Source of the DNA: an uncultured Candidatus Saccharibacteria bacterium
Lineage (GTDB): Bacteria > Patescibacteriota > Minisyncoccia > UBA6257 > WO2-44-18
Direction of reading: 5' to 3'
Assembly (NCBI GenBank): GCA_964503795.1
Contig: CAZDBT010000003.1
Coordinates: 1 to 63,661, forward strand
Length of the DNA stretch: 63,661 nucleotides
Shown: one piece after another, positions 950-61,084 of the stretch
Position numbering within the stretch: the stretch's first letter is position 1
Layout: each line of letters starts with the position of its first letter
Program-made: the position numbers and the translations under genes
The notes under the pieces: generated by a model
Told to the model about the DNA's origin: nothing
Database searches by the model: none
What the model saw: only the letters and a program-made list of their open reading frames with translations

Positions 950-1909
950 ATGGATAAGCTGTTGCACAAAAAGATTTCCGTTGTAATTCCTTGTTATAAC
1001 GAGCAGGGCAACATAGAGGAACTCTACAACCGTCTTACGGCTGTACTGGGTAAGTTAGTCTCCGATCACGAGTTGATCTTCGTGGATAACCACAGCACCG
1101 ACCAGACCCGGGAAATTTTGCGTCGATTGGCGGCCAAAGACAGGCGGCTGATTGCCCTGTTTTTTTCCCGTAATTTCGGTCATTCCCAATATGGTTTTAC
1201 CGCCGGGAGCGAATATGCCAACGGTGACGCGGTAGTTTGGTTGGATGCCGATCTACAGGACCAACCGGAGCTGATCGAACAGTTCGTTGAGAAATGGAAA
1301 GAAGGTTACGACGTTGTTTATGGGGTGCGAACTAAGCGGCGGGGCAGTTGGTTTATGAATATCGGCTACAAGACTTTCTACGCGTTATTCCGTAAATCAG
1401 CCTTTATGGATATTCCGAGGGACGCCGGCGATTTTTCTTTGATTGACCGGAAAGTTATCAACGTGATCAATGCCATGCCGGAACGGGATCGATTCGTGCG
1501 TGGTTTGCGGGCCTGGGCCGGGTTCCGGGCAATCGGCGTCAGTTATCACCGCGATGCTCGTCACGCAGGTAGAACCTCCAATAATCTTATTAAAAGCATT
1601 TGGTGGGCGAAGAAAGCTATCTTTTCTTTTTCCTATGCTCCTATAGAAGTTATTTTCTACGCTGCCCTGGCGACGTTTTGTGTTTCAGTTTTCGCTATCC
1701 TTTTTTATGTTTGGTCTTTCCTGTTCGGCTCCGGAGTTCCCAGGGGTTTTACCAGCCTGATGCTGGTGATCTTATTTTTTGGATCGGCCCAACTGCTTTC
1801 CATCAGCATTCTCGCCGAATATATTTCCCGCATCTTTGAAGAGGTTAAGCAGCGGCCTCAATATGTTGTTGAAGAGATCCTTAATGACCGAAACAAAAAG
1901 AATGCCTAG
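950..1909 (+). CDS. Family-2 glycosyltransferase, polyprenyl-phosphate sugar transferase type (ArnC/GtrB/DPM1-like)
   Basis: VVIPCYNEQGNIEEL, FVDNHSTDQT and DADLQD motifs. Two C-terminal TM helices (FSFSYAPIEVIFYAALATFCVSVFAILFYVW, LMLVILFFGSAQLLSISILAEY). Confidence 0.8.
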   Translation: MDKLLHKKISVVIPCYNEQGNIEELYNRLTAVLGKLVSDHELIFVDNHSTDQTREILRRLAAKDRRLIALFFSRNFGHSQYGFTAGSEYANGDAVVWLDADLQDQPELIEQFVEKWKEGYDVVYGVRTKRRGSWFMNIGYKTFYALFRKSAFMDIPRDAGDFSLIDRKVINVINAMPERDRFVRGLRAWAGFRAIGVSYHRDARHAGRTSNNLIKSIWWAKKAIFSFSYAPIEVIFYAALATFCVSVFAILFYVWSFLFGSGVPRGFTSLMLVILFFGSAQLLSISILAEYISRIFEEVKQRPQYVVEEILNDRNKKNA

Positions 1910-2726
1910 TTCTATTGAACAACTCAAAGAACACGCTAGGAATGTGCGCCGTAGCGTCATTGAGATCGCTACACCGGTACGGAGTTCTCACACGGGCGGC
2001 GCCTTTTCCGCTACCGATCTGTTGGTCGCGCTGTATTTTGAGATCTTGAAGATCGATCCTAAGGATCCGAAAGATCCGGACCGGGATATTTTTATTTACA
2101 GCAAAGGCCATTCATCCTCGGCGCTTTATTCCACCCTGGTGGAGCGGGGCTTCGCCGGCCGGGAAATTTTGAAAGAATACTATGTTGATGGCGGACGCCT
2201 TTCCGGTCACCCGGTGATCAATAATATGCCGGGCGTGGAAGTCTCCACCGGTTCTCTGGGGCATGGTCTGCCGATCGGAGTAGGCATGGCCCTGGCCAGG
2301 AAGGCGGATAAAAAAAGCTCCCGGGTATTTGTGATGGTTTCTGATGGAGAGTGCGACGAAGGTTCGGTCTGGGAAGCAGCCATGCTGGCCGGTTTTACCA
2401 AGCTGGATAATTTGACTGTGATCGTTGACTACAACAAGATCCAGAGTTTGGCCCATGTCGCCGAGGTATTAGACCTAGAGCCGTTCAAGAAAAAATGGGA
2501 AGCTTTCGGCTGGTCCGCGCAAGAGATCAACGGACACGATTTCAATGAGATCCTGGGAGCGCTCGGGAAATTGCCGTTGGAAAGCGGCAAGCCCAGCGTG
2601 GTTATCGCGCACACCATCAAAGGCAAAGGAGTTTCCTTTATGGAGAACAAGGTCGCCTGGCATTATAAGTCCTTAGATGATCCGAAGGATTATCAAAAGG
2701 CACTGGAAGAGATCAACCGATCATGA
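1884..2726 (+). CDS. Transketolase-like TPP enzyme, N-terminal (pyrophosphate-binding) subunit; glycan-locus copy
   Basis: SHTGGAFSATDLLVALYF, GSLGHGLPIGVGMALA and SDGECDEGSVWEAAMLAG motifs. The start is uncertain (ATG 1884 or 1902); the ORF-track start 1779 lies inside the GT2 gene. Confidence 0.8.
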   Translation: MTETKRMPSSIEQLKEHARNVRRSVIEIATPVRSSHTGGAFSATDLLVALYFEILKIDPKDPKDPDRDIFIYSKGHSSSALYSTLVERGFAGREILKEYYVDGGRLSGHPVINNMPGVEVSTGSLGHGLPIGVGMALARKADKKSSRVFVMVSDGECDEGSVWEAAMLAGFTKLDNLTVIVDYNKIQSLAHVAEVLDLEPFKKKWEAFGWSAQEINGHDFNEILGALGKLPLESGKPSVVIAHTIKGKGVSFMENKVAWHYKSLDDPKDYQKALEEINRS

Positions 2727-3640
2727 GAGCCGCTTTTCTCAACGGACTGATGGAGCTAGCCGAAAAAGATGAACGAATCTTCCTTTTAACGGGGGATCTG
2801 GGTTTCGGTGTGTTAGAGCCGTTCCAGGCGAAGTTTCCGGATCGATTTTTGAATGTCGGCGTGGCGGAACAGGATATGATCGGTATTGCCGCCGGCCTGG
2901 CGCTTTCAGGCAAGGTGCCGATCGCTTATTCTATCGCCACCTTCGTTTCGTTGAGGCCGTATGAGTTCATTCGCAACGACGTTTGTTATCAGAATCTGAA
3001 CGTGAAGATCGTTGGCGTGGGCGCCGGGCTTTCTTATTCGCAATACGCGGCGACCCATCAATCCATTGATGACGTGGCGGCGATCCGGGCTTTGCCCAAC
3101 ATCGCCATTTTAAATCCGGGTGACCCGATAGAGACCGACCTGGCGTTAAAAGCGGCCATGGATCACGTTGGGCCGGTTTATTTACGCATCGGAAAAAAAG
3201 GAGAGCCGAATATTCACTCGGCGCCGCCCACCTTCACTATTGGCAAAGCTATCACCTTGCAGGACGGCAAAGACATTACCGTGATCGCTACGGGAAATAT
3301 GCTGGAAAATGCCAGCAAGGCGGTGAAGATTCTGGAGGCAGATAAGTTGTCGGTGCGATTTATCAGTATGCCGACCGTGAAACCTCTGGATGAAGAAACA
3401 GTGAGAAGGGCGGCCAAAGAAACAAAAGCGATCGTAACCGTTGAAGAAAACTTTCTTAACGGCGGATTAGGGACGGCAGTGGCGGAAGTCTTGGTTTCCA
3501 ATGATCTGCCGAAAGTTAAATTCCTCAAGATCGCCCTTCCTCACAAGTATCCGGCCGAGATCGGCTCGCAGGAATATATGCGAAATCTTTATGGTTTGAT
3601 GCCGGCGCAGATTGCCGAGAAGATCAGAACTTTCTTATAA
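2723..3640 (+). CDS. Transketolase-like TPP enzyme, C-terminal (pyrimidine-binding) subunit; glycan-locus copy
   Basis: FLNVGVAEQDMIGIAAGLALSG and HQSIDDVAAIRALPN motifs. ATGA overlap with the N-terminal subunit. Paralogous to 53177-54166. Confidence 0.85.
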   Translation: MRAAFLNGLMELAEKDERIFLLTGDLGFGVLEPFQAKFPDRFLNVGVAEQDMIGIAAGLALSGKVPIAYSIATFVSLRPYEFIRNDVCYQNLNVKIVGVGAGLSYSQYAATHQSIDDVAAIRALPNIAILNPGDPIETDLALKAAMDHVGPVYLRIGKKGEPNIHSAPPTFTIGKAITLQDGKDITVIATGNMLENASKAVKILEADKLSVRFISMPTVKPLDEETVRRAAKETKAIVTVEENFLNGGLGTAVAEVLVSNDLPKVKFLKIALPHKYPAEIGSQEYMRNLYGLMPAQIAEKIRTFL

Positions 3641-54168: not shown

Positions 54169-54303
54169 AACCTTCTCGGTACCCTCGGGCAATTGCTTCT
54201 CGGACACAGAATAACCGGCCTGCTGGCCGGTTATTCTTCTCACTCGGTAGCCGAGCTACCTCCGTGACGTTCCTCGAACCAATCTGCCCTACGACCAAGA
54301 AGG
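54169..54303. ncRNA. Structured repeat element, copy A (candidate novel ncRNA, 3'UTR element or REP-like repeat)
   Basis: Shares ATTGCTTCTCGGAnACAGAATAACC (25/26 nt) and CTCCGnGAyGTTCCTnnAACCAAnnnGCCCT with 57958-58075. 13-bp hairpin AGAATAACCGGCC/GGCCGGTTATTCT, 5-bp hairpin CTCGG/CCGAG, and an enclosing TCTCGGA/TCCGTGA helix. Confidence 0.45.
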
Positions 54304-54340
54304 TTTATTTTATTCTGTTTATTTATGATAAAATGTAAGA

Positions 54341-55360
54341 ATGTTCGGCAATAAATTTGATGTTGTCTGTATCGGCTCCGCTACGCGGGATAATTATTTG
54401 CGCGGGAAATATAAATTGATAGATTGGCCGGAGGCGCCATCAAAGAAGGCGATCGTTCTGCCGTTCGGGGAAAAGTTCACGATGGACGGGGTCTATTCCA
54501 CCATCGGCGGCAATGCCGCTAATGCGGCCGTTACCTTCGCTCGCTATGGTTTCAAAACCGCTTGTCTGGCGAAGATCGGTGATGATCCGGCCGGCCGGGA
54601 ATTTACTCATCAGATGGAGGGCGCGGGCGTGAGTACAAAGTTGATCGTGAAAACCCAAGAAAAGCCCACTGCTTACTCCGTTCTATTATTAGGCGATGGC
54701 GAGCGCACCATTTTGGGTTATCATGGCGCTTCCGATACTTTTACGATGGCGGATGTAGATCTGAATAAGCTGAAGGCTAAATGGTGGTATCTTTCTCTGG
54801 CCGGAGAATCCGATGCGATGTTCTTGCCTTTGATGGAATTTGCGCGGGCCAACAATATCAAAGTTGCCTTCAATCCCAGCGGACATCACATTGATCATAA
54901 AAAAGACGAGATCTTGGCCGGCCTGAAAGATGTAGCTTTCTTGGTTTTGAATACCGGAGAGGCGGCTGATCTATTGAGTATGTCTTATGAAAAAGAAAAA
55001 GAAGTTTTTGCAAAACTGGCATCGCTTGTTCCCGGCGTGGTTGCGATCACTGATGGTCCTAATGGCGTTGTAGTCTCTGATGGTGTTTATCGATACAAAG
55101 CCGGGATTTATAAAGAAAAAGTTGCTACAGATCGGACTGGTTGTGGCGATGCCTTTGGAAGCGGATTCGCAGCCGTATTAGTGGAGGCGGGCGCCAATGA
55201 TAAAGATCCGGAAGTGATCAAAAAAGCGATCGCGTTTGCCAGCGCCACCGCAACAGCCAATTTGGAGGTTTTGGGCGCCACCGAGGGATTATTGACCAAG
55301 GCGGATTTTGAAAATGACCAGAGGTGGAAAAATTTTGATATTAAGGTAGAAAAAATATAA
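54341..55360 (+). CDS. PfkB-family carbohydrate kinase (ribokinase-like)
   Basis: VVCIGSATRD, GGNAANAA and DRTGCGDAFGSGFAA (PfkB signature 2). Confidence 0.8.
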   Translation: MFGNKFDVVCIGSATRDNYLRGKYKLIDWPEAPSKKAIVLPFGEKFTMDGVYSTIGGNAANAAVTFARYGFKTACLAKIGDDPAGREFTHQMEGAGVSTKLIVKTQEKPTAYSVLLLGDGERTILGYHGASDTFTMADVDLNKLKAKWWYLSLAGESDAMFLPLMEFARANNIKVAFNPSGHHIDHKKDEILAGLKDVAFLVLNTGEAADLLSMSYEKEKEVFAKLASLVPGVVAITDGPNGVVVSDGVYRYKAGIYKEKVATDRTGCGDAFGSGFAAVLVEAGANDKDPEVIKKAIAFASATATANLEVLGATEGLLTKADFENDQRWKNFDIKVEKI

Positions 55361-56625
55361 TGGAAAATCACGCAGAAAAACTTTCCCGGATATTGAGAAT
55401 AGACAAAAAGATCCTTACCGATCTGGAGAACAGGCTTAGCATTGTAACGGGCAAGAAGGATGTTTTTCAGAAGATCAATCAGGAAAGCGATGAATTGGTG
55501 ATCGCGCGACGACTGGTTCTCGGTTTGCCACCCAGCTGTTCCGCGCATGAAGTTTATGACGCCTTGATCAGCAAGGTAGAGTCAGACGACTTTGCCATCT
55601 TGAAGGCGCTGAAAACTTCAGGTATGAGTCATGCCGAATCAGCGGTCGCCGTGGTTAATTTGGTCAAAGGTTTGCATCCGCCGACCAATGGCTTCTTTTT
55701 GAAATACGATAAAGCTAAAGAATTGTTGAGAGCCGAGCCGCCCAAAAAGATCCTGGAAGCGATGGGTTATGCCAGCGTGGAGGAACTTATAGAAAAAGAG
55801 GACTTGCTGGAGGTTTTCAGCGCCCTTAGATTTTTGGAGGAATCCGAATGGTTGAACACGGTTTTTTTCAAACAGTATGAAAAATTAACACCCGATGATT
55901 TTGAAAATCGCCCGATCCAATTGCGGGCATTGAACGCGAAATGGGGGAAGGCAGCCGAGAAGTTTGTGGCCAAAAAATATCACAACGTCAGCCATCTGAA
56001 AGAAATGGGCGTGATCTTCGTGATCCCGTTGTTTTTGGGAATTTCCGGAGAGTCGTTGCGTTTGATCAGTCTGCTGCTTCATTACTTGAATGAAGTGAAG
56101 TATTACTCGGAGGTTTTCCAGGACTTGAGCTCTGATGCGAAAACTTTCGCGCCGAAGCTGATCTCTTTGTTGCGTGGCGACGTGGTGGAATCCCGGTTGC
56201 CGGAGCCGACCGATAAGACCAAGACCAGAATTTTGGTCATTCAGCGGTATCTGGCGAAAGATGACGATAATGACTGGCGGTTGTTTGAGCCGCACATCAA
56301 TCCCGAAGCCTTGCATTGGGAAAAAGCCGAAGAAGAAATACAATTGATCAATACTCGCCTGCCGGGTTTCGTGGATAACCTAGAATTTTGGAAAGGATTG
56401 GGTACGGTCGGAGACTTTTTCAAAACCGATATCGGTACGGATGTACTGGTAAGTTTTAATATCGTTGATACCGTGATGGCTCTGGTGAAAAATAAAGAGC
56501 TTATTAAATATCTGTATCATCATCAGGAGGCTTTATGGAACCGGATCTTTGAAGAGTATTTTGGGAAAGAGCAATTGCGGGAAATGAGCAAGAAATATCT
56601 GCTACAGGGTTGGTTTGAAATATAA
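55360..56625 (+). CDS. Hypothetical protein, 421 aa; no family recognised
   Basis: Its ATG overlaps the pfkB stop (TAATG). Soluble, helical-looking sequence, located between pfkB and fba. Confidence 0.6.
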   Translation: MENHAEKLSRILRIDKKILTDLENRLSIVTGKKDVFQKINQESDELVIARRLVLGLPPSCSAHEVYDALISKVESDDFAILKALKTSGMSHAESAVAVVNLVKGLHPPTNGFFLKYDKAKELLRAEPPKKILEAMGYASVEELIEKEDLLEVFSALRFLEESEWLNTVFFKQYEKLTPDDFENRPIQLRALNAKWGKAAEKFVAKKYHNVSHLKEMGVIFVIPLFLGISGESLRLISLLLHYLNEVKYYSEVFQDLSSDAKTFAPKLISLLRGDVVESRLPEPTDKTKTRILVIQRYLAKDDDNDWRLFEPHINPEALHWEKAEEEIQLINTRLPGFVDNLEFWKGLGTVGDFFKTDIGTDVLVSFNIVDTVMALVKNKELIKYLYHHQEALWNRIFEEYFGKEQLREMSKKYLLQGWFEI

Positions 56626-56626
56626 A

Positions 56627-57496
56627 ATGAGAACTTTACGGGAAGTAATTCAAGATGCGGAAAAACGGGGGGTAGCCGTGGGGCATTTTAATATTTCCGA
56701 AACGGCGGCGCTGAAAGCGGTAGCGGAGGTGGCGCGGGAACTGAACGTGCCGGTGATGGTGGGAACTTCTGAAGGTGAGCGGGATTTTTTGGATCCCGAT
56801 GAGGCGGTGGCGATGGTAAAGGAATTGCGGGAGAAGCATGGCCAGGAGATCTATATCAACGCCGATCATACAAAGTCGGTGGAAAAAGCCAAGGCGGCGG
56901 TGGATGCCGGTTACGACGAAGTGCTTTTTGATGGAGCCAAGCTTTCCGCGGAAGAAAACATTAAACAAACAATTGAGGTAGTTAAATACGCGCGAGCAAA
57001 GAATCCCGACATCGTGGTGGAGGGAGAGATCGGGGATATCGGCAGCGGCTCCACGATTCGCAAAGAAATTCCCAAGGGGGCGGCGATAAACCCGGACCAG
57101 CTGACCAAACCGGAAGAGGCGGCGGCGTTTGTGAAAGCCACCGGTATTGATCTGCTGGCCCCTGCCGTAGGAAACATCCACGGGATGTTCGCCAACGCCC
57201 CGGAACCGGCCTTGGATCTGGAAAGAATAGCGGCCATTCGCAAGGCAGCCGGCGTGCCGTTGGTTTTGCATGGCGGTTCCGGCAATACCGATAGCGACTT
57301 TTTAGGCGCGATCAAAGGCGGGGTGGCAATCATCCACATCAGCACCGAATTGCGTCTAGCTTGGAGAAAGGGGATGGAAGAAACCCTAAAAGATAAGCCC
57401 GATGAAGTGGCGCCTTATAAGTTGATGGAGGGATCTATAGAAGAAATGAAGAAGGTGCTGACCCAGCGGCTGAAGCTTTTTAATAAGATTCCATGA
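56627..57496 (+). CDS. fba: Class II fructose-bisphosphate aldolase
   Basis: GVAVGHFNISE, INADHTKS, EGEIGDIGS, APAVGNIHG and LVLHGGSG motifs. ATG 56627 (the track start 56615 is TTG). Confidence 0.85.
   Translation: MRTLREVIQDAEKRGVAVGHFNISETAALKAVAEVARELNVPVMVGTSEGERDFLDPDEAVAMVKELREKHGQEIYINADHTKSVEKAKAAVDAGYDEVLFDGAKLSAEENIKQTIEVVKYARAKNPDIVVEGEIGDIGSGSTIRKEIPKGAAINPDQLTKPEEAAAFVKATGIDLLAPAVGNIHGMFANAPEPALDLERIAAIRKAAGVPLVLHGGSGNTDSDFLGAIKGGVAIIHISTELRLAWRKGMEETLKDKPDEVAPYKLMEGSIEEMKKVLTQRLKLFNKIP
57471..57484 (+). repeat. Direct repeat, left copy (TGAAGCTTTTTAAT)
   Basis: The identical 14-mer recurs at 57932-57945. Together they bracket the DUF4258/DUF2283 pair. Confidence 0.9.
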
Positions 57497-57714
57497 AAAT
57501 AATTCTTACTGACCATGCGAAATGGCGAATTAAAGAAAGAAACATCACGATTCAGACAATAAAATTGGTCCTATCAAGCCCAGATGTTTTGAGACAATCT
57601 TTTGATGATAGATACACTGCCACAAAAGTGGTTGCTGGAGAAACCATTGAGATTGTGTATACTAAAGAAAAAGGCGAAAAATATATAATTATTACAGCTT
57701 ACTATGGAAATTAA
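57493..57714 (+). CDS. DUF4258-family protein (putative toxin)
   Basis: 73 aa: MKIILTDHAKWRIKERNITIQTIKLVL...IITAYY. ATGA overlap with the fba stop. Confidence 0.6.
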   Translation: MKIILTDHAKWRIKERNITIQTIKLVLSSPDVLRQSFDDRYTATKVVAGETIEIVYTKEKGEKYIIITAYYGN

Positions 57715-57910
57715 ATACGACCCAACCGCTAAAGCCGCCTATCTCAAACTAAAAAAGGGGAAAGTCGCTCAAACGATAAAAATAAAGGATTCGCTTATTA
57801 TTGATCTTGATAAGAAGGGTGGCGTTTTAGGTGTGGAGCTTTTGGATTTTGCCCCGCCATTATCAGTAAAGAAAAGTTCGCGCCTTAAGTTGCCGGCACC
57901 AGTCCAGTAA
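57704..57910 (+). CDS. DUF2283-family protein (putative antitoxin)
   Basis: 68 aa: MEIKYDPTAKAAYLKLKKGKVAQTIKIKDSLIIDLDKKGGVLGVELLD. 11-nt overlap with the upstream gene. Confidence 0.6.
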   Translation: MEIKYDPTAKAAYLKLKKGKVAQTIKIKDSLIIDLDKKGGVLGVELLDFAPPLSVKKSSRLKLPAPVQ

Positions 57911-57945: not shown

Positions 57946-57957
57946 CACCTAGAATAG

Positions 57958-58075
57958 CTCGGTCGCATTGCTTCTCGGAAACAGAATAACCCCGCTCCAA
58001 CGGCGGGGTTTTCTTCACCCTTGCCCCGCGTTGCGGGGCTCCGAGATGTTCCTTAAACCAACGCGCCCTCGCCCC
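57958..58075. ncRNA. Structured repeat element, copy B
   Basis: Same conserved blocks as copy A. The hairpin tips differ but still pair (AGAATAACCCCGC/GCGGGGTT-TTCT; GCCCCGC/GCGGGGC). Enclosing helix TCTCGGA/TCCGAGA. Confidence 0.45.
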
Positions 58076-58162
58076 TGTTTTGAGCCACTTGCATTTTGTT
58101 GCGGGGGGGGGCGATAATGGTGGTACGTCGAAATATAAATAAAAATAAGTTTAATTTTCAAT

Positions 58163-58846
58163 ATGCCAAAGTCACCAGAGGGAGGATATGTGCCATCGCC
58201 GGAAGAAGAGAAGAAGGCCGGGGAAATGATGGCGCCGGAAGAGGAGTCAAAAGAAAATAAAGACCTTGAACTGATGAGGGGGAGTAAGTTTTTTGATAGC
58301 AAGGGCCACATGATTGAATTCGGTGAGAGGGGTGATGTTACAGAATATGTGCGCGCCAGAGAAAACACGGGGCAAAGCATGAAGGACAAATTAAAGGACA
58401 TACTGACAGACCGAATAATAGAGGTGCCTACAAGCCGAGGTATTGAAAAGTTCGAGAAGTCAGGCAAGGCAATGGAGCCAGAGGAGTGGCTAGAGTTTTT
58501 TGAGGAGCAAGCATCGGACTTGAAAGTTGCGATTTCGGAAGAGGAAAAAAAGTTAACCGAGATGGAACGCAAGTTGACCAATTTTGACGAGGATCAGAGG
58601 GTCAAGAAAGAGCAACGAAGGGCGATGCCTCAAAAACCTATAATCACAGATGAACAAAAAAAAGAATTGGGACTTGAAGGAATGGTTTTTGGCGAACCAT
58701 TCGATCTCGATGATGATAAGGCTTTTTTGGAACAAGACATCGTAGAGATTAAGCAGCACTTGGAACGACTCAGGGCGCTATTGAATTTTTTCCAAAACAA
58801 ACAGATTAAGCTTGACGCAGAACTTAATAGGGCACAAAACAATTAG
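58163..58846 (+). CDS. Glu/Lys-rich coiled-coil hypothetical protein
   Basis: 227 aa, charged low-complexity sequence. The antisense ORF 58015-58581 (Ser-rich) is judged a shadow. Confidence 0.5.
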   Translation: MPKSPEGGYVPSPEEEKKAGEMMAPEEESKENKDLELMRGSKFFDSKGHMIEFGERGDVTEYVRARENTGQSMKDKLKDILTDRIIEVPTSRGIEKFEKSGKAMEPEEWLEFFEEQASDLKVAISEEEKKLTEMERKLTNFDEDQRVKKEQRRAMPQKPIITDEQKKELGLEGMVFGEPFDLDDDKAFLEQDIVEIKQHLERLRALLNFFQNKQIKLDAELNRAQNN

Positions 58847-58873
58847 CAAAAATCCGCCGAGTCGCTAGTGGTG

Positions 58874-58938
58874 CCGTTTGCCGCTCCGACGTGAACAGTC
58901 GGAGCCCCGACCGCAAGCGTCGGGGCTGGAGCAAACGG
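58874..58938. other. Compact three-way-junction-like element (twin hairpins inside an 8-bp helix)
   Basis: CCGTTTGC...GCAAACGG encloses CTCCGAC-GTGAACA-GTCGGAG and CCCCGAC-CGCAAGC-GTCGGGG, which are directly adjacent. Confidence 0.4.
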
Positions 58939-58975
58939 AACGGGTTGAGGGAAGAGAGGATTGTTGAGCGAATCC

Positions 58976-59004
58976 TTGTCAAAATAACCGAAATCGCTTA
59001 TTAT
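58976..59004 (+). promoter_or_regulatory. Candidate promoter placing the L25 start codon at or next to the TSS
   Basis: TTGTCA, a 17-nt spacer, then TATTAT. The ATG at 59013 is 8 nt downstream and there is no Shine-Dalgarno sequence. Confidence 0.4.
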
Positions 59005-59012
59005 TTAACCCA

Positions 59013-59708
59013 ATGGATTTAGCGGTACAAAAACGGGAGAAATTCGGGAAAGCAACCAAGGCCATGCGTTTGGCCGGTTTGGTGCCCGCTGAACTTTACG
59101 GACGTGGCGTAGCCAACGTTCATTTGGCGATTCCAGCCAAAGAATTACGCCGCATTTTGAAACAGGCCGGCGAAAATACTATGGTTAACGTGCTGATCGA
59201 TGGTCAGAGCCGTCCGGTGATGATCCACAAGCTGGCTCACAATCCGGTCAGCGATGAAATTACGAATGTAGACTTGTATCAGGTCCGCTTGGACGAAAAA
59301 ATTAAAGTCCGCGTGCCGGTAGAATTTATCGGTGAATCACAGGCCATCAAAGAGAAGAATGGTCTTTTGGTGAAAGCGATGCAAGAAATTGAAGTTGAGG
59401 CTTTGCCTACCAACATCCCTCGTTCCGTTTCCGCCGACATTTCTAAGATCGCCGATATCGGTCAGAGCGTTTATGTGAAAGATCTGAAATTCGCCGATGG
59501 TGTTACGGCGATAGTGGATGGGGAGTCCGTAGTTGCTACCGTTACCGCCAAGATGACTGAAGAGCAGGAAGCTGCGTTGTCTGCCGAGGTGAAGCCGGAA
59601 GATGTGAAAGTTGAGACGGAAGAGAAGAAAGAAGCTCGGGATGCCGCCAAGGCTGCTACTGCCGAAGCGCCAGCCGCAGGAGCCGCGCCTGCCCCGGAAA
59701 AGAAGTAG
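59013..59708 (+). CDS. rplY: 50S ribosomal protein L25/Ctc (long form)
   Basis: REKFGKATKAMRLAGLVPAELYG...VNVLIDG...HPV.D.I.NVDL. Acidic/Ala-rich C-terminal tail. Confidence 0.85.
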   Translation: MDLAVQKREKFGKATKAMRLAGLVPAELYGRGVANVHLAIPAKELRRILKQAGENTMVNVLIDGQSRPVMIHKLAHNPVSDEITNVDLYQVRLDEKIKVRVPVEFIGESQAIKEKNGLLVKAMQEIEVEALPTNIPRSVSADISKIADIGQSVYVKDLKFADGVTAIVDGESVVATVTAKMTEEQEAALSAEVKPEDVKVETEEKKEARDAAKAATAEAPAAGAAPAPEKK

Positions 59709-59736
59709 TAAGTAGCAAGTATTAAGTATAAAGATT

Positions 59737-59761
59737 AAAACCCCCGAAAGGGGGTTTTGTC
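59737..59761 (+). terminator. Rho-independent terminator
   Basis: AAAACCCCC-GAAA-GGGGGTTTT. Confidence 0.85.
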
Positions 59762-59770
59762 GTATATAAT

Positions 59771-61084
59771 ATGAATATGCGATTAGTAGCCGCATTTTTT
59801 CTCGCCTTAATACTTAATACCGCATACTTAATACCGCATACGATCCCGGCAGCTTTTGCCCAGAGTTCTTCCGATGAACGGCAGGCCCTAGAAAAGCAGC
59901 TCCAGGATCTAGAGGCGCAGATCGCTGCTAATGAGGCCAAAGTAAGCGACTACAAAAAACAGGGCAAGACTTTACAGGGCGAGATTGGTTCTCTGAATTC
60001 CAAAATCAGTAAGCTCAATTTGCAGATCAAGGCGATCACGCTGAATCTGGCAAAGCTGGATAAAGACATTGTTGTAAATCAGGGAGAGATAAAAGACGCG
60101 GAAACCAAATTGGACACTAATAAAGGCGCGCTGACAAACCTGATCCGCCGGTTGAACGAAGATGAGGATTCTGGTCTGGTGGAGGTGATGCTGAAACATC
60201 CGCGACTTTCTGATTTTTTCGGAAACCTTAACAGCATTTTGGCGGTCAAGGACGCGTTGGCCTCTACGGTTTCACAGGTTAAGTCGCTGCGGGAGAGTTT
60301 GTTGGGTAAGAAAGAAGATCTAGCGAATAAGCGCAGTGACGCGGCGGCCCTGAAGGCTTTTCAGGATTCTCAAAAGAAATCTATCGCCCAGACCAAGCAG
60401 GAGAAGGATGTTCTTTTGAAAGAAACTAAAGGCCAGGAGTCCAAATATCAGGCGATCGTAAAAGAAACCCAGAAGACCGCGGCCCAGATCCGTAGCCGAT
60501 TGTTCGAATTGCTTGGCGGCGGCGAGTTGACCTTTGAAGCGGCTTATAAATTCGCGAAGTTCGCCGAAGACGCTACCGGTATCCGGGCGGCATTTATTCT
60601 GGCGATTTTGGATAGGGAATCGGCGCTGGGGCAGAACGTCGGCAAGTGCAATTACAAAACGGCAATGCACCCCACCCGCGATATTCCATTGTTCTTGGCA
60701 TTAACCGCGGCTTTGAGCATCAGCCCGGATTCGGTAACGGTTTCTTGCGCGAATGCCGATGGCGCTTATGGCGGCGCGATGGGTCCGGCGCAGTTCATCC
60801 CATCCACCTGGAATCTTTATAAGGATCGGATCGCCGAAATTACCGGCCACAATCCGGCTTCGCCCTGGAACAATGGAGATGCTTTCGTAGCCACCGCTTT
60901 GTATATGAAAGACGCGATGAGTGGCTGCCGATCTATCTACTCCAAGCAGCTGGATCAGGAGCGTTGCGCGGCGGCGAAATATTATGCCGGCGCCAGATGG
61001 CGGAGTCATCTTTGGGGTTATGGCGATCGCGTGGTTACCAAAGCCCAGCAATTCCAAGCCGACATCGATCTGTTAAATTCCTAA
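59771..61084 (+). CDS. Secreted coiled-coil protein with C-terminal lytic transglycosylase (SLT/MltB-like) domain
   Basis: Signal peptide ending AFA-QS. Long coiled coil. GGAMGPAQFIPSTWNLY and GDAFVATALYM motifs. Confidence 0.7.
   Translation: MNMRLVAAFFLALILNTAYLIPHTIPAAFAQSSSDERQALEKQLQDLEAQIAANEAKVSDYKKQGKTLQGEIGSLNSKISKLNLQIKAITLNLAKLDKDIVVNQGEIKDAETKLDTNKGALTNLIRRLNEDEDSGLVEVMLKHPRLSDFFGNLNSILAVKDALASTVSQVKSLRESLLGKKEDLANKRSDAAALKAFQDSQKKSIAQTKQEKDVLLKETKGQESKYQAIVKETQKTAAQIRSRLFELLGGGELTFEAAYKFAKFAEDATGIRAAFILAILDRESALGQNVGKCNYKTAMHPTRDIPLFLALTAALSISPDSVTVSCANADGAYGGAMGPAQFIPSTWNLYKDRIAEITGHNPASPWNNGDAFVATALYMKDAMSGCRSIYSKQLDQERCAAAKYYAGARWRSHLWGYGDRVVTKAQQFQADIDLLNS
59811..59838 (+). 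repeat. Perfect 14-nt tandem duplication (TACTTAATACCGCA x2) in the signal-peptide coding region
   Basis: 59811-59824 is identical to 59825-59838. The unit length is not a multiple of 3. Confidence 0.95.

Follow-up and report, generated by a model that had tools for sequence, protein, structure and literature searches.

The DNA analysed here, a stretch of 63,661 nucleotides referred to throughout as the window, is a Parcubacteria-type contig that carries genes for a split transketolase, pfkB, a class II aldolase and rplY, and the closest relatives of its TktC are named Harrisonbacteria, Paceibacterota or Patescibacteria. Two copies of one structured element lie on its + strand: copy A (54169..54305, including an outer closing helix) between tktC and pfkB, at a site otherwise occupied by the tktC terminator, and copy B (57957..58072) within an accessory insert between fba and rplY. 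The copies have in common two near-identical blocks and one three-way-junction fold. The 5′ block, ATTGCTTCTCGGANACAGAATAACC, has exactly two matches in the 63.7-kb window (54192-54216 and 57967-57991, both +; 0.00 expected by chance), and the 3′ block, GTTCCTNNAACCAANNNGCCCT, likewise has exactly two (54269-54290 and 58048-58069, both +; 0.10 expected by chance), which bears out the shared blocks proposed in an earlier, sequence-only reading of this DNA. A covariance-model search with the filters off returned A and B as the only full copies in the window. The R1 model matches copy A over 54178-54294 with 82 bits (E ~1e-20) and copy B over 57952-58073 with 123.5 bits, and its score is strongly strand-asymmetric (123 bits on the + strand vs 10 bits on the - strand). 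Relative to shuffled sequences, copy A folds with z-scores of -7.3 (+) and -9.1 (-), and copy B with -3.5 (+) and -3.4 (-).

In copy A, the core spans 54183..54294 on the + strand according to R1 and alignment A3. The stem P0 pairs GGGCAATTGCTT (54187-54198) with AACCAATCTGCCC (54277-54289), and P1 pairs TCTCGGA (54198-54204) with TCCGTGA (54261-54267); between the two strands of P1 lie the hairpin P2 (54208-54237, loop TGCT), the segment J2/3 (54238-54245) and P3, GGTAGC-cga-GCTACC (54246-54260), which abuts TCCGTGA, while the conserved bulge CGTTCCTCG occupies 54268-54276. The outer helix of AACCTTCT (54169-54176) and AGAAGGTT (54298-54305) closes the whole copy, with a T-rich tract, TTTATTTTATT, directly 3′ of it. 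The corresponding parts of copy B, also on the + strand, are P0 (57961-57973 with 58055-58067), P1 (57973-57979 with 58040-58046), P2 (AGAATAACCCCGC-tccaacg-GCGGGGTTTTCT, 57983-58014), J2/3 (58015-58022), P3 (GCCCCGC-gtt-GCGGGGC, 58023-58039) and the bulge TGTTCCTTA (58047-58055), and both copies are short-P3 forms. The P2 hairpins exist as they had first been read, and the P1 TCTCGGA/TCCGNGA pairing and the outer AACCTTCT/AGAAGGTT helix of copy A are likewise both present. Two details of that reading are revised: the P3 of copy A had been taken for CTCGG-tag-CCGAG, but the family alignment gives GGTAGC-cga-GCTACC as the homologous hairpin, and the counterpart of CTCGGT in copy B is CTCGGG (54185-54190) rather than the CTCGGT at 54175-54180.

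A probable remnant of a third copy lies inverted at 58895..58935 (- strand; GCCCCGAC-gcttgcg-GTCGGGGCTCCGA), between the gene of a 227-aa protein and rplY and on the far side of that gene from copy B; it corresponds to a P3 of the type found at loci L019 and L022 (L numbers denote the loci compared) together with the first part of the 3′ block. A long compound hairpin extends over window positions 58860-58985, with CCGTTTGC...GCAAACGG around GCTCCGAC/GTCGGAGC and CCCCGAC/GTCGGGG, and since part of it matches the L019/L022-type P3 and the 3′ junction, it is probably a decayed inverted copy. The accessory insert consists of a DUF4258/DUF2283 gene pair (toxin-antitoxin-like, 57493-57910) and the 227-aa protein, which has no Pfam match (58163-58846) and upstream of whose gene there is a run of nine G (58104-58112); L026, where fba and rplY are 40 nt apart, has no such insert. 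Elsewhere in the window, a 421-aa ORF without a Pfam match (55360-56625) stands between pfkB and fba, which are adjacent in L026 and L027, and pfkB itself is ~30% identical to the pfkB of these two loci vs 85% to that of L029. A second, divergent split-transketolase pair (1769-3640) is 38-42% identical to TktN/TktC of L026-L029, and a 29-nt AT-rich inverted repeat, GTAGTAAGTAGCAAGTATTAAGTATAAAG / CTTAATACTTAATACCGCATACTTAATAC, surrounds the start of an SLT-domain gene (59705-59834). Amid the pentose-phosphate genes of relatives, a bAvd and reverse-transcriptase pair (diversity-generating-retroelement-like) and small GIY-YIG ORFs are found (L026 6422-7769 and 9701-9946; L034 897-1142).

Further copies, for which the sequence-only reading had proposed a search, were found via the 5′ block, the 3′ block and the covariance model. 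The 5′-block scan of one genome per species gave about ten chance matches and five real copies, of which L006, L013 and L014 come from one MAG and L007 and L015 from a second; the 3′ block, used as an independent anchor on metagenome contigs, gave seven real loci (L019-L025), mostly from Hainich groundwater assemblies. The R1 model added four, namely a second L023 copy, two L022 half copies and a degenerate L006 copy (L006b), and later matched a 53-nt mini copy after secY (L039) and a copy inside mnmA (L040); the core-only model R2 found only one mini copy (L039) in 289 kb. Viral contigs searched with two sequence patterns, and plasmid and phage collections searched with blastn, yielded no copy. 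The density is low, roughly one element per 30-100 kb: the window has two copies and a remnant, a 258-kb contig at least three (L021, L023a and L023b), and the MAG of L006, L013 and L014 three. In being short, non-coding and dispersed in several copies per genome, the element resembles a MITE. The MAG with three copies (CAZJFE01 contigs) is titled 'Candidatus Saccharibacteria', a label that is probably wrong: the SecY it encodes matches a protein from a Parcubacteria group bacterium at 100% identity over 91% of the query, and Harrisonbacteria SecY at 71-78%. By SecY this MAG is therefore a relative of Parcubacteria, so that all hosts of the element belong to one clade, and cross-class horizontal transfer, which the label had brought up, was rejected on the same evidence. 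As far as sampled, the family is confined to one Parcubacteria (Harrisonbacteria-like) groundwater clade.

The unit is 115-170 bp long, with deletion derivatives of 53 bp. On the + strand, the outer stem P0 pairs (GC)AUUGCUU with AA(C/G)CAAU..GC and carries on its 3′ strand a conserved one-sided bulge of 9-10 nt, AUGUUCCUYA. P1 is CUCGGA/UCCGAG and J1/2 is AACAG, followed by P2, in which AGAA-U-AAC, a 5-bp variable stem and a loop (often UCCUGCG or UCCAACG) are closed by GUU-UUCU. Next, J2/3 reads (U)CGCUCUC, and P3 is a variable 6-8-bp stem abutting P1, which in the long form encloses a hairpin, UUCGUUCG...CGAACGA, and the motif RCCAAGCC; in the P3a stem, CGTTCG/CGAACG, the sequence itself is conserved. 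The ends of the family, GCTCGGTCGCATTGC and GCAATACGCCCTCGC, form P0, with inverted complementarity at 11 of 15 positions, the palindrome being imperfect and interrupted by the one-sided bulge. A small ORF (MFLKAIRPR...) from the conserved AUG was considered and rejected, as it has neither a Shine-Dalgarno sequence nor a -10 box and its sequence is unconserved beyond the element.

Pairing was counted in 12 full copies from related Parcubacteria (Harrisonbacteria-like) assemblies. Standard pairs make up 94.3% of the pair cells, as opposed to 36-51% when the partners are slid, and 22 of the 44 pairs have changes on both sides, with none of 500 shuffles reaching any of these measures, although the stem variation comes as a few stem types common to several loci and genomes and the independent events are therefore fewer than the cell counts suggest. 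These figures confirm the earlier view of a conserved, strongly structured element with real compensatory changes. Compensatory pairs are found in P2 (7/12), P3 (7/8), P3a (3/7), P0 (4/10) and P1 (1/7), where the path of change on the + strand runs from U-A through U.G to C-G, and the unpaired blocks are almost invariant among paralogs with completely different stems. Such strong covariation in P2, P3 and P3a, with some in P0 and P1, and the near-invariance of the single-stranded blocks argue for multi-copy functional structured RNAs, be it a protein-binding or regulatory sRNA, a 3′-UTR element for processing or stability, or a new self-cleaving ribozyme, whose activity would reside in the conserved junctions and the AUGUUCCUYA bulge, with P2 and P3 as variable scaffolds. 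The strand asymmetry of the R1 score points the same way, as do the 53-nt L039, which retains exactly P0 and the bulge, and the element of L015/L020, which is more conserved than its coding flanks (1 of 151 positions differs, vs ~5% in the flanks). Most copies also have a U-rich 3′ flank (TTTG) after P0, and L015/L020 and L023a have canonical terminators 17-25 nt downstream, both of which would suit such RNAs. We nevertheless consider functional RNAs of this kind an unlikely explanation, and the evidence against them is given below as it arises.

Against Rfam 15 at the gathering threshold, the window yielded only a tRNA, and ten related loci only tRNAs; at E<=10, copies A and B gave nothing except sub-threshold look-alikes of terminator hairpins, the best being rdlD with 20 bits vs 50. 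Like the earlier reading, which had matched the element to no familiar RNA family, the covariance models of Rfam 15 gave no match, those of riboswitches, 6S, SRP, tmRNA and all known ribozyme classes included, a result that counts against a functional RNA. No description was found in the literature on structured RNAs or repeats of CPR bacteria, and to our knowledge no repeat families or non-coding elements of this kind have been described in them.

Where a single RNA strand is functional, G.U is normally well in excess of A.C among the mismatches. In the element, G.U is no commoner than A.C (9 vs 12 in alignment A3 and 7 vs 10 in the MAFFT alignment A2), so that no strand can be assigned, and the stems are ~93% Watson-Crick. 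The balance weighs against a functional RNA, and would fit a DNA palindrome or the use of both strands. Moreover, quasi-palindrome (template-switch) mutagenesis can preserve complementarity between the two arms of a hairpin in DNA that has no role as RNA, and covariation alone therefore does not settle the matter of RNA function. Strand-symmetric mismatches and almost purely Watson-Crick stems are also what would favour a DNA-level site, a cruciform or folded single strand acting as a recombination or attachment site for accessory cassettes, or as a supercoiling or nucleoid-protein barrier at the borders of transcription units. The P3a stem, operator-like in that its very sequence is conserved, and the truncated copies that adjoin accessory genes (L014, and copy B with the inverted remnant flanking the 227-aa gene) are consistent with such a site, but a role as duplex DNA gives no easy account of the conserved one-sided bulge, the element has neither integron-type core sites (RYYYAAC/GTTRRRY) nor arrays, and there is no recombinase in the flanks. 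We regard a DNA-level site as improbable.

The genes next to the copies (tkt/pfkB, a DUF2283 gene and an uncharacterised gene, tuf, secY, pilB, ruvB, rplK and RNase J) are unrelated to each other, and the orientation of the element relative to them is mixed. It lies in sense directly after the stop codon in copy A (tktC), L015/L020 (a pilin-like gene), L023a (pilB), L014 and L039 (both secY) and L022 (rplK), in sense upstream of a gene in L023b (ruvB) and L013, and antisense to both neighbours in L006 and L007 (upstream of tuf) and L024/L021 (upstream of RNase J). Placement independent of orientation would again suit a DNA-level site. It also bears on the suggestion that the element is a riboswitch-like or attenuator leader of pfkB and the 58163 gene, for which it speaks that both window copies are upstream of, and codirectional with, a gene, and that the 3′ CCGAGA has two possible alternative partners, the 5′ block and the CUCUCGG of the long-copy J2/3. 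Inspection of the alignment, however, showed no covariation gained by the alternative pairing with J2/3, which the changes in L021 break. A cis-regulatory leader would also keep a fixed sense 5′-UTR orientation by related genes, but the downstream genes are unrelated and several copies are at gene 3′ ends or antisense to both neighbours, as in L006, L007 and L024. The closest relatives, moreover, keep the tktC-pfkB junction without the element, L034 with a pfkB of the same type among them, and a putative leaderless-type promoter of pfkB lies 3′ of copy A. Orientation and synteny together exclude the leader for practical purposes, and we give it next to no weight.

The putative pfkB promoter is an extended -10-like sequence, TGATAAAAT (54320..54340, + strand; read from the sequence), a few bases before the ATG and immediately 3′ of copy A, and a -10 next to the ATG is also seen in L032, L013 and L023b. 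Boxes of the TATAAT or TGnTAAAAT type stand 6-7 nt before the ATG at window 54320-54343, L023 2758-2790 and L032 1335-1357, and their presence at many genes suggests that leaderless mRNAs are common in the lineage and that its gene boundaries are very compact.

In the antisense cases, the order is the upstream gene's own canonical terminator, the reverse-complemented element and then a promoter. Outward promoters on the opposite strand with 11-12 of 12 consensus positions are found in L006, L007, L013, L021 and L024; they are near-perfect TTGACA-N17-TATAAT sequences whose -35 overlaps or abuts the first bases of the 5′ end of the element, and L023b has a sixth, weaker one. L006 and L013, different loci of one MAG, are 91% identical over 192 nt, the promoter being included in the duplicated unit. 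Copies directly upstream of very strong promoters would accord with a DNA-level site, as extrusion there would be promoted by negative supercoiling. For the + strand of the element, flank inspection and promoter scans revealed no sigma70-type promoter of its own, and in L006, L007, L021 and L024 that strand is preceded by a divergent promoter and by the neighbour's own terminator, both of which argue against a functional RNA.

The hairpin P2, with its A-tract, GC stem and U-tract, scored as terminator-like on both strands in copy B, and the reverse-complemented P2 of L024 and L021 was flagged as terminator-like in a scan. As a GC-rich hairpin followed by a U-tract, P2 is thus a predicted terminator-like structure, and would end transcription ahead of P3 and the 3′ block of any functional RNA. 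Since copy A in addition replaces the tktC terminator, one might take the copies for ordinary intrinsic terminators that have become alike by convergence; this is highly implausible, as blocks of 25 nt and 30 nt that are not part of the hairpin recur unchanged at different loci and in different genomes, with a chance expectation of 0.00-0.10, and the other terminators of the window have only the hairpin shape in common with the element.

One copy, L019, lies within the reading frame of mnmA, at a point flanked by the GHYVR and KDQSYFL motifs, and leaves the ORF open; it is translated as ~46-48 aa. The same insert of ~46 aa occurs in the MnmA homologs P0242, P0243, P0244 and P0247 (67-76% identity), while P0252, P0260, P0281 and P0285 lack it. 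The DNA of P0243 (L040) scores 97.5 bits with R1: its P2 stem is entirely different yet complementary, P3 and P0 have compensated pairs, P1 is degraded, and the U-tract is interrupted (UUUGCUU). Between L019 and L040, the element is 74% identical and the flanking coding sequence 66-68%. Searched with a profile of the insert, 1.84 billion representative proteins yielded no further credible host, only truncated MnmA and an over-extended GreA-like ORF, and a spread through many proteins in the manner of Rickettsia palindromic elements (RPEs) was rejected accordingly. Translation within mnmA argues against a functional RNA, and the in-frame copy has no obvious role as a DNA-level site. In P0241 a different sequence (SKWPASPKLQRGEPASPKL...) is inserted at this MnmA linker, which is apparently an insertion hot spot.

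Gain and loss of the element can be followed at several sites. The tktC-pfkB spacer is 174 nt long with the element in the window and 60 nt long with a plain terminator in a relative with 95% TktC identity. No element follows tktC at 95% (L032/L033), 91% (L035/L036), 90% (L034), 88% (L026) and 85-86% (L027-L030) TktC identity, and the contig of a further 91% relative (L031) ends 10 nt after the tktC stop. Where copy A stands in the window, L032, L034 and L026 have an ordinary terminator hairpin, and copy A itself is enclosed by an outer stem with a T-run after it, an arrangement that resembles the tktC terminator of these relatives. The tktC-pfkB spacer of L035 (4870-4980, = L036; 91% TktC identity) contains a different palindromic repeat, TGTCATTGCGAGGCCGCAGGCCGTGGCAATCC ... 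TTCGCAATGACA, and the site is therefore occupied there by another element family. A covariance-model search of ~149 kb of relatives' DNA gave no full copy and only the L039 mini copy, and the site 3′ of secY has a half copy in L014, the mini copy in L039 and none in L037. The element is thus present or absent at orthologous sites of close relatives, as is typical of MITEs, and this variation among relatives of 85-95% identity speaks against a functional RNA. On the other hand, it has been kept at the orthologous L021/L024 site across 77% flank identity, where L024 is 93% identical to the non-orthologous L015 vs ~76-77% to its ortholog L021. The element thus forms subfamilies that different genomes have in common. 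Among the derivatives, L014 is a 5′ half, L022 a 3′ half with an inverted 5′ half, and L006b is degenerate. Assembly breaks of the sort expected for a repeat occur in Logan contigs, both within copy B and immediately 3′ of tktC. Neither a target-site duplication, nor direct repeats, nor a common target motif was found at 13 loci, and no transposase, RAYT or integrase gene in any fetched flank.

Taken together, copies A and B belong to a real and new family of structured elements. These are probably dispersed, non-coding imperfect-palindrome repeats of the ERIC/Correia/RPE/MITE kind, which are situated at the boundaries of transcription units and have a bidirectional terminator-like hairpin, with an outward -35 in one subfamily; we hold this with modest confidence. 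The sequence-only reading had listed a REP/MITE-like repeat as its alternative, and dispersal, both orientations, presence and absence and derivatives make this the best fit to the evidence, whereas the riboswitch-like leader did not hold, given the unrelated neighbours, the two orientations and the intact tktC-pfkB junction of relatives, and the case for an sRNA gene is weakened by the lack of a visible promoter of its own, the balance of G.U and A.C and the translated mnmA copy. Such a palindromic element would have spread, at present or in the past, as DNA via trans-acting machinery or recombination, often into or next to terminator hairpins, and its arms may have been kept complementary by selection for hairpin formation during the spread or by arm-to-arm template-switch correction. 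The hosts would tolerate the element or exploit its transcription signals: P2 could act as a bidirectional intrinsic terminator or insulator, and the TTGACA -35 at the 5′ end of one subfamily, together with a -10 in the flank, would give strong outward promoters for tuf, RNase J and others. The lack of target duplication at 13 loci and of a transposase in the fetched flanks, as well as the low copy number, count against a palindromic repeat, as does the persistence of the mnmA copies across 67-76% protein identity with compensated stems. The near-invariant unpaired blocks, the conservation of L015/L020, the reduction of the mini copy to exactly P0 and the bulge, the orthologous persistence and the path of change in P1 are signs of constraint, or purifying selection, which ordinary junk MITEs do not show. 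A bolder reading is a new structured-RNA class, such as a self-cleaving ribozyme or a protein-docking 3′-UTR module, with the P0 bulge AUGUUCCUYA, J1/2 AACAG and J2/3 CGCUCUC as its active site, that would hitch-hike through Parcubacteria genomes as a mobile unit and be selected even in the mnmA mRNA; this we think rather unlikely.

Bacteria of the candidate phyla radiation have very small, streamlined genomes. In them, a repeat family of this kind would mark the boundaries of transcription units, with some copies bringing a terminator-like hairpin and a consensus promoter and one domesticated in a tRNA-modification enzyme, and could serve as a handle on transcription punctuation and genome rearrangement in CPR bacteria. 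If it is a functional RNA, it would constitute a new clade-specific RNA class. In practical terms, the element causes breaks in metagenome assemblies and may be used as a lineage marker.

Several known systems resemble the element in part. Integron attC sites differ from it clearly, as its ends are GCTCGG...CCCTCGC without RYYYAAC/GTTRRRY core sites (alignments A2 and A3) and it is dispersed by housekeeping genes. With the 'orphan' RNA motifs of the Rfam type it has in common conserved junction nucleotides along with variable covarying stems, but it has no Rfam match, no consistent transcriptional context and no G.U excess. REP, BIME and REPIN sequences are hairpin-forming intergenic repeats at gene 3′ ends, for which roles in termination, mRNA stability and DNA topology have been proposed, and the element is likewise a hairpin-forming intergenic repeat at such sites. 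However, REPs are 20-40 nt long and have a GTAG head, tens to hundreds of copies and a RAYT gene, while the element is 115-170 nt long with two internal hairpins and no GTAG head, is rare and has no RAYT in the fetched flanks. The Correia elements (CREE/NEMIS) of Neisseria are short inverted-repeat elements at gene borders which can bring promoter hexamers at their ends and serve as terminators or processing sites, and a -35 similarly abuts the 5′ end of the element in 5-6 copies; their clear terminal inverted repeats, TA duplication, IHF site and hundreds of copies have no counterpart here. RPEs are palindromes of 100-150 bp that can lie in frame in conserved protein genes without breaking the ORF, as the element does in mnmA, although this is the one host gene found and most copies are intergenic.

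ERIC/IRU sequences are imperfect palindromes of ~127 bp in enterobacteria that occur in low to moderate copy number in intergenic sites at gene ends and in both orientations. They are present or absent at orthologous sites, have longer and shorter variants due to internal insertions and deletions, and are unusually highly conserved, which has suggested a role at the RNA level. The element agrees with them in size, imperfect palindromy, copy number, intergenic gene-end sites, use of both orientations, presence and absence, length variants and conservation. In contrast, it is unrelated to them in sequence and belongs to another phylum, and it is distinguished by its three-way junction with the conserved one-sided bulge, by the terminator-like P2 and the outward -35 within the unit, and by one copy that lies in frame in a gene.
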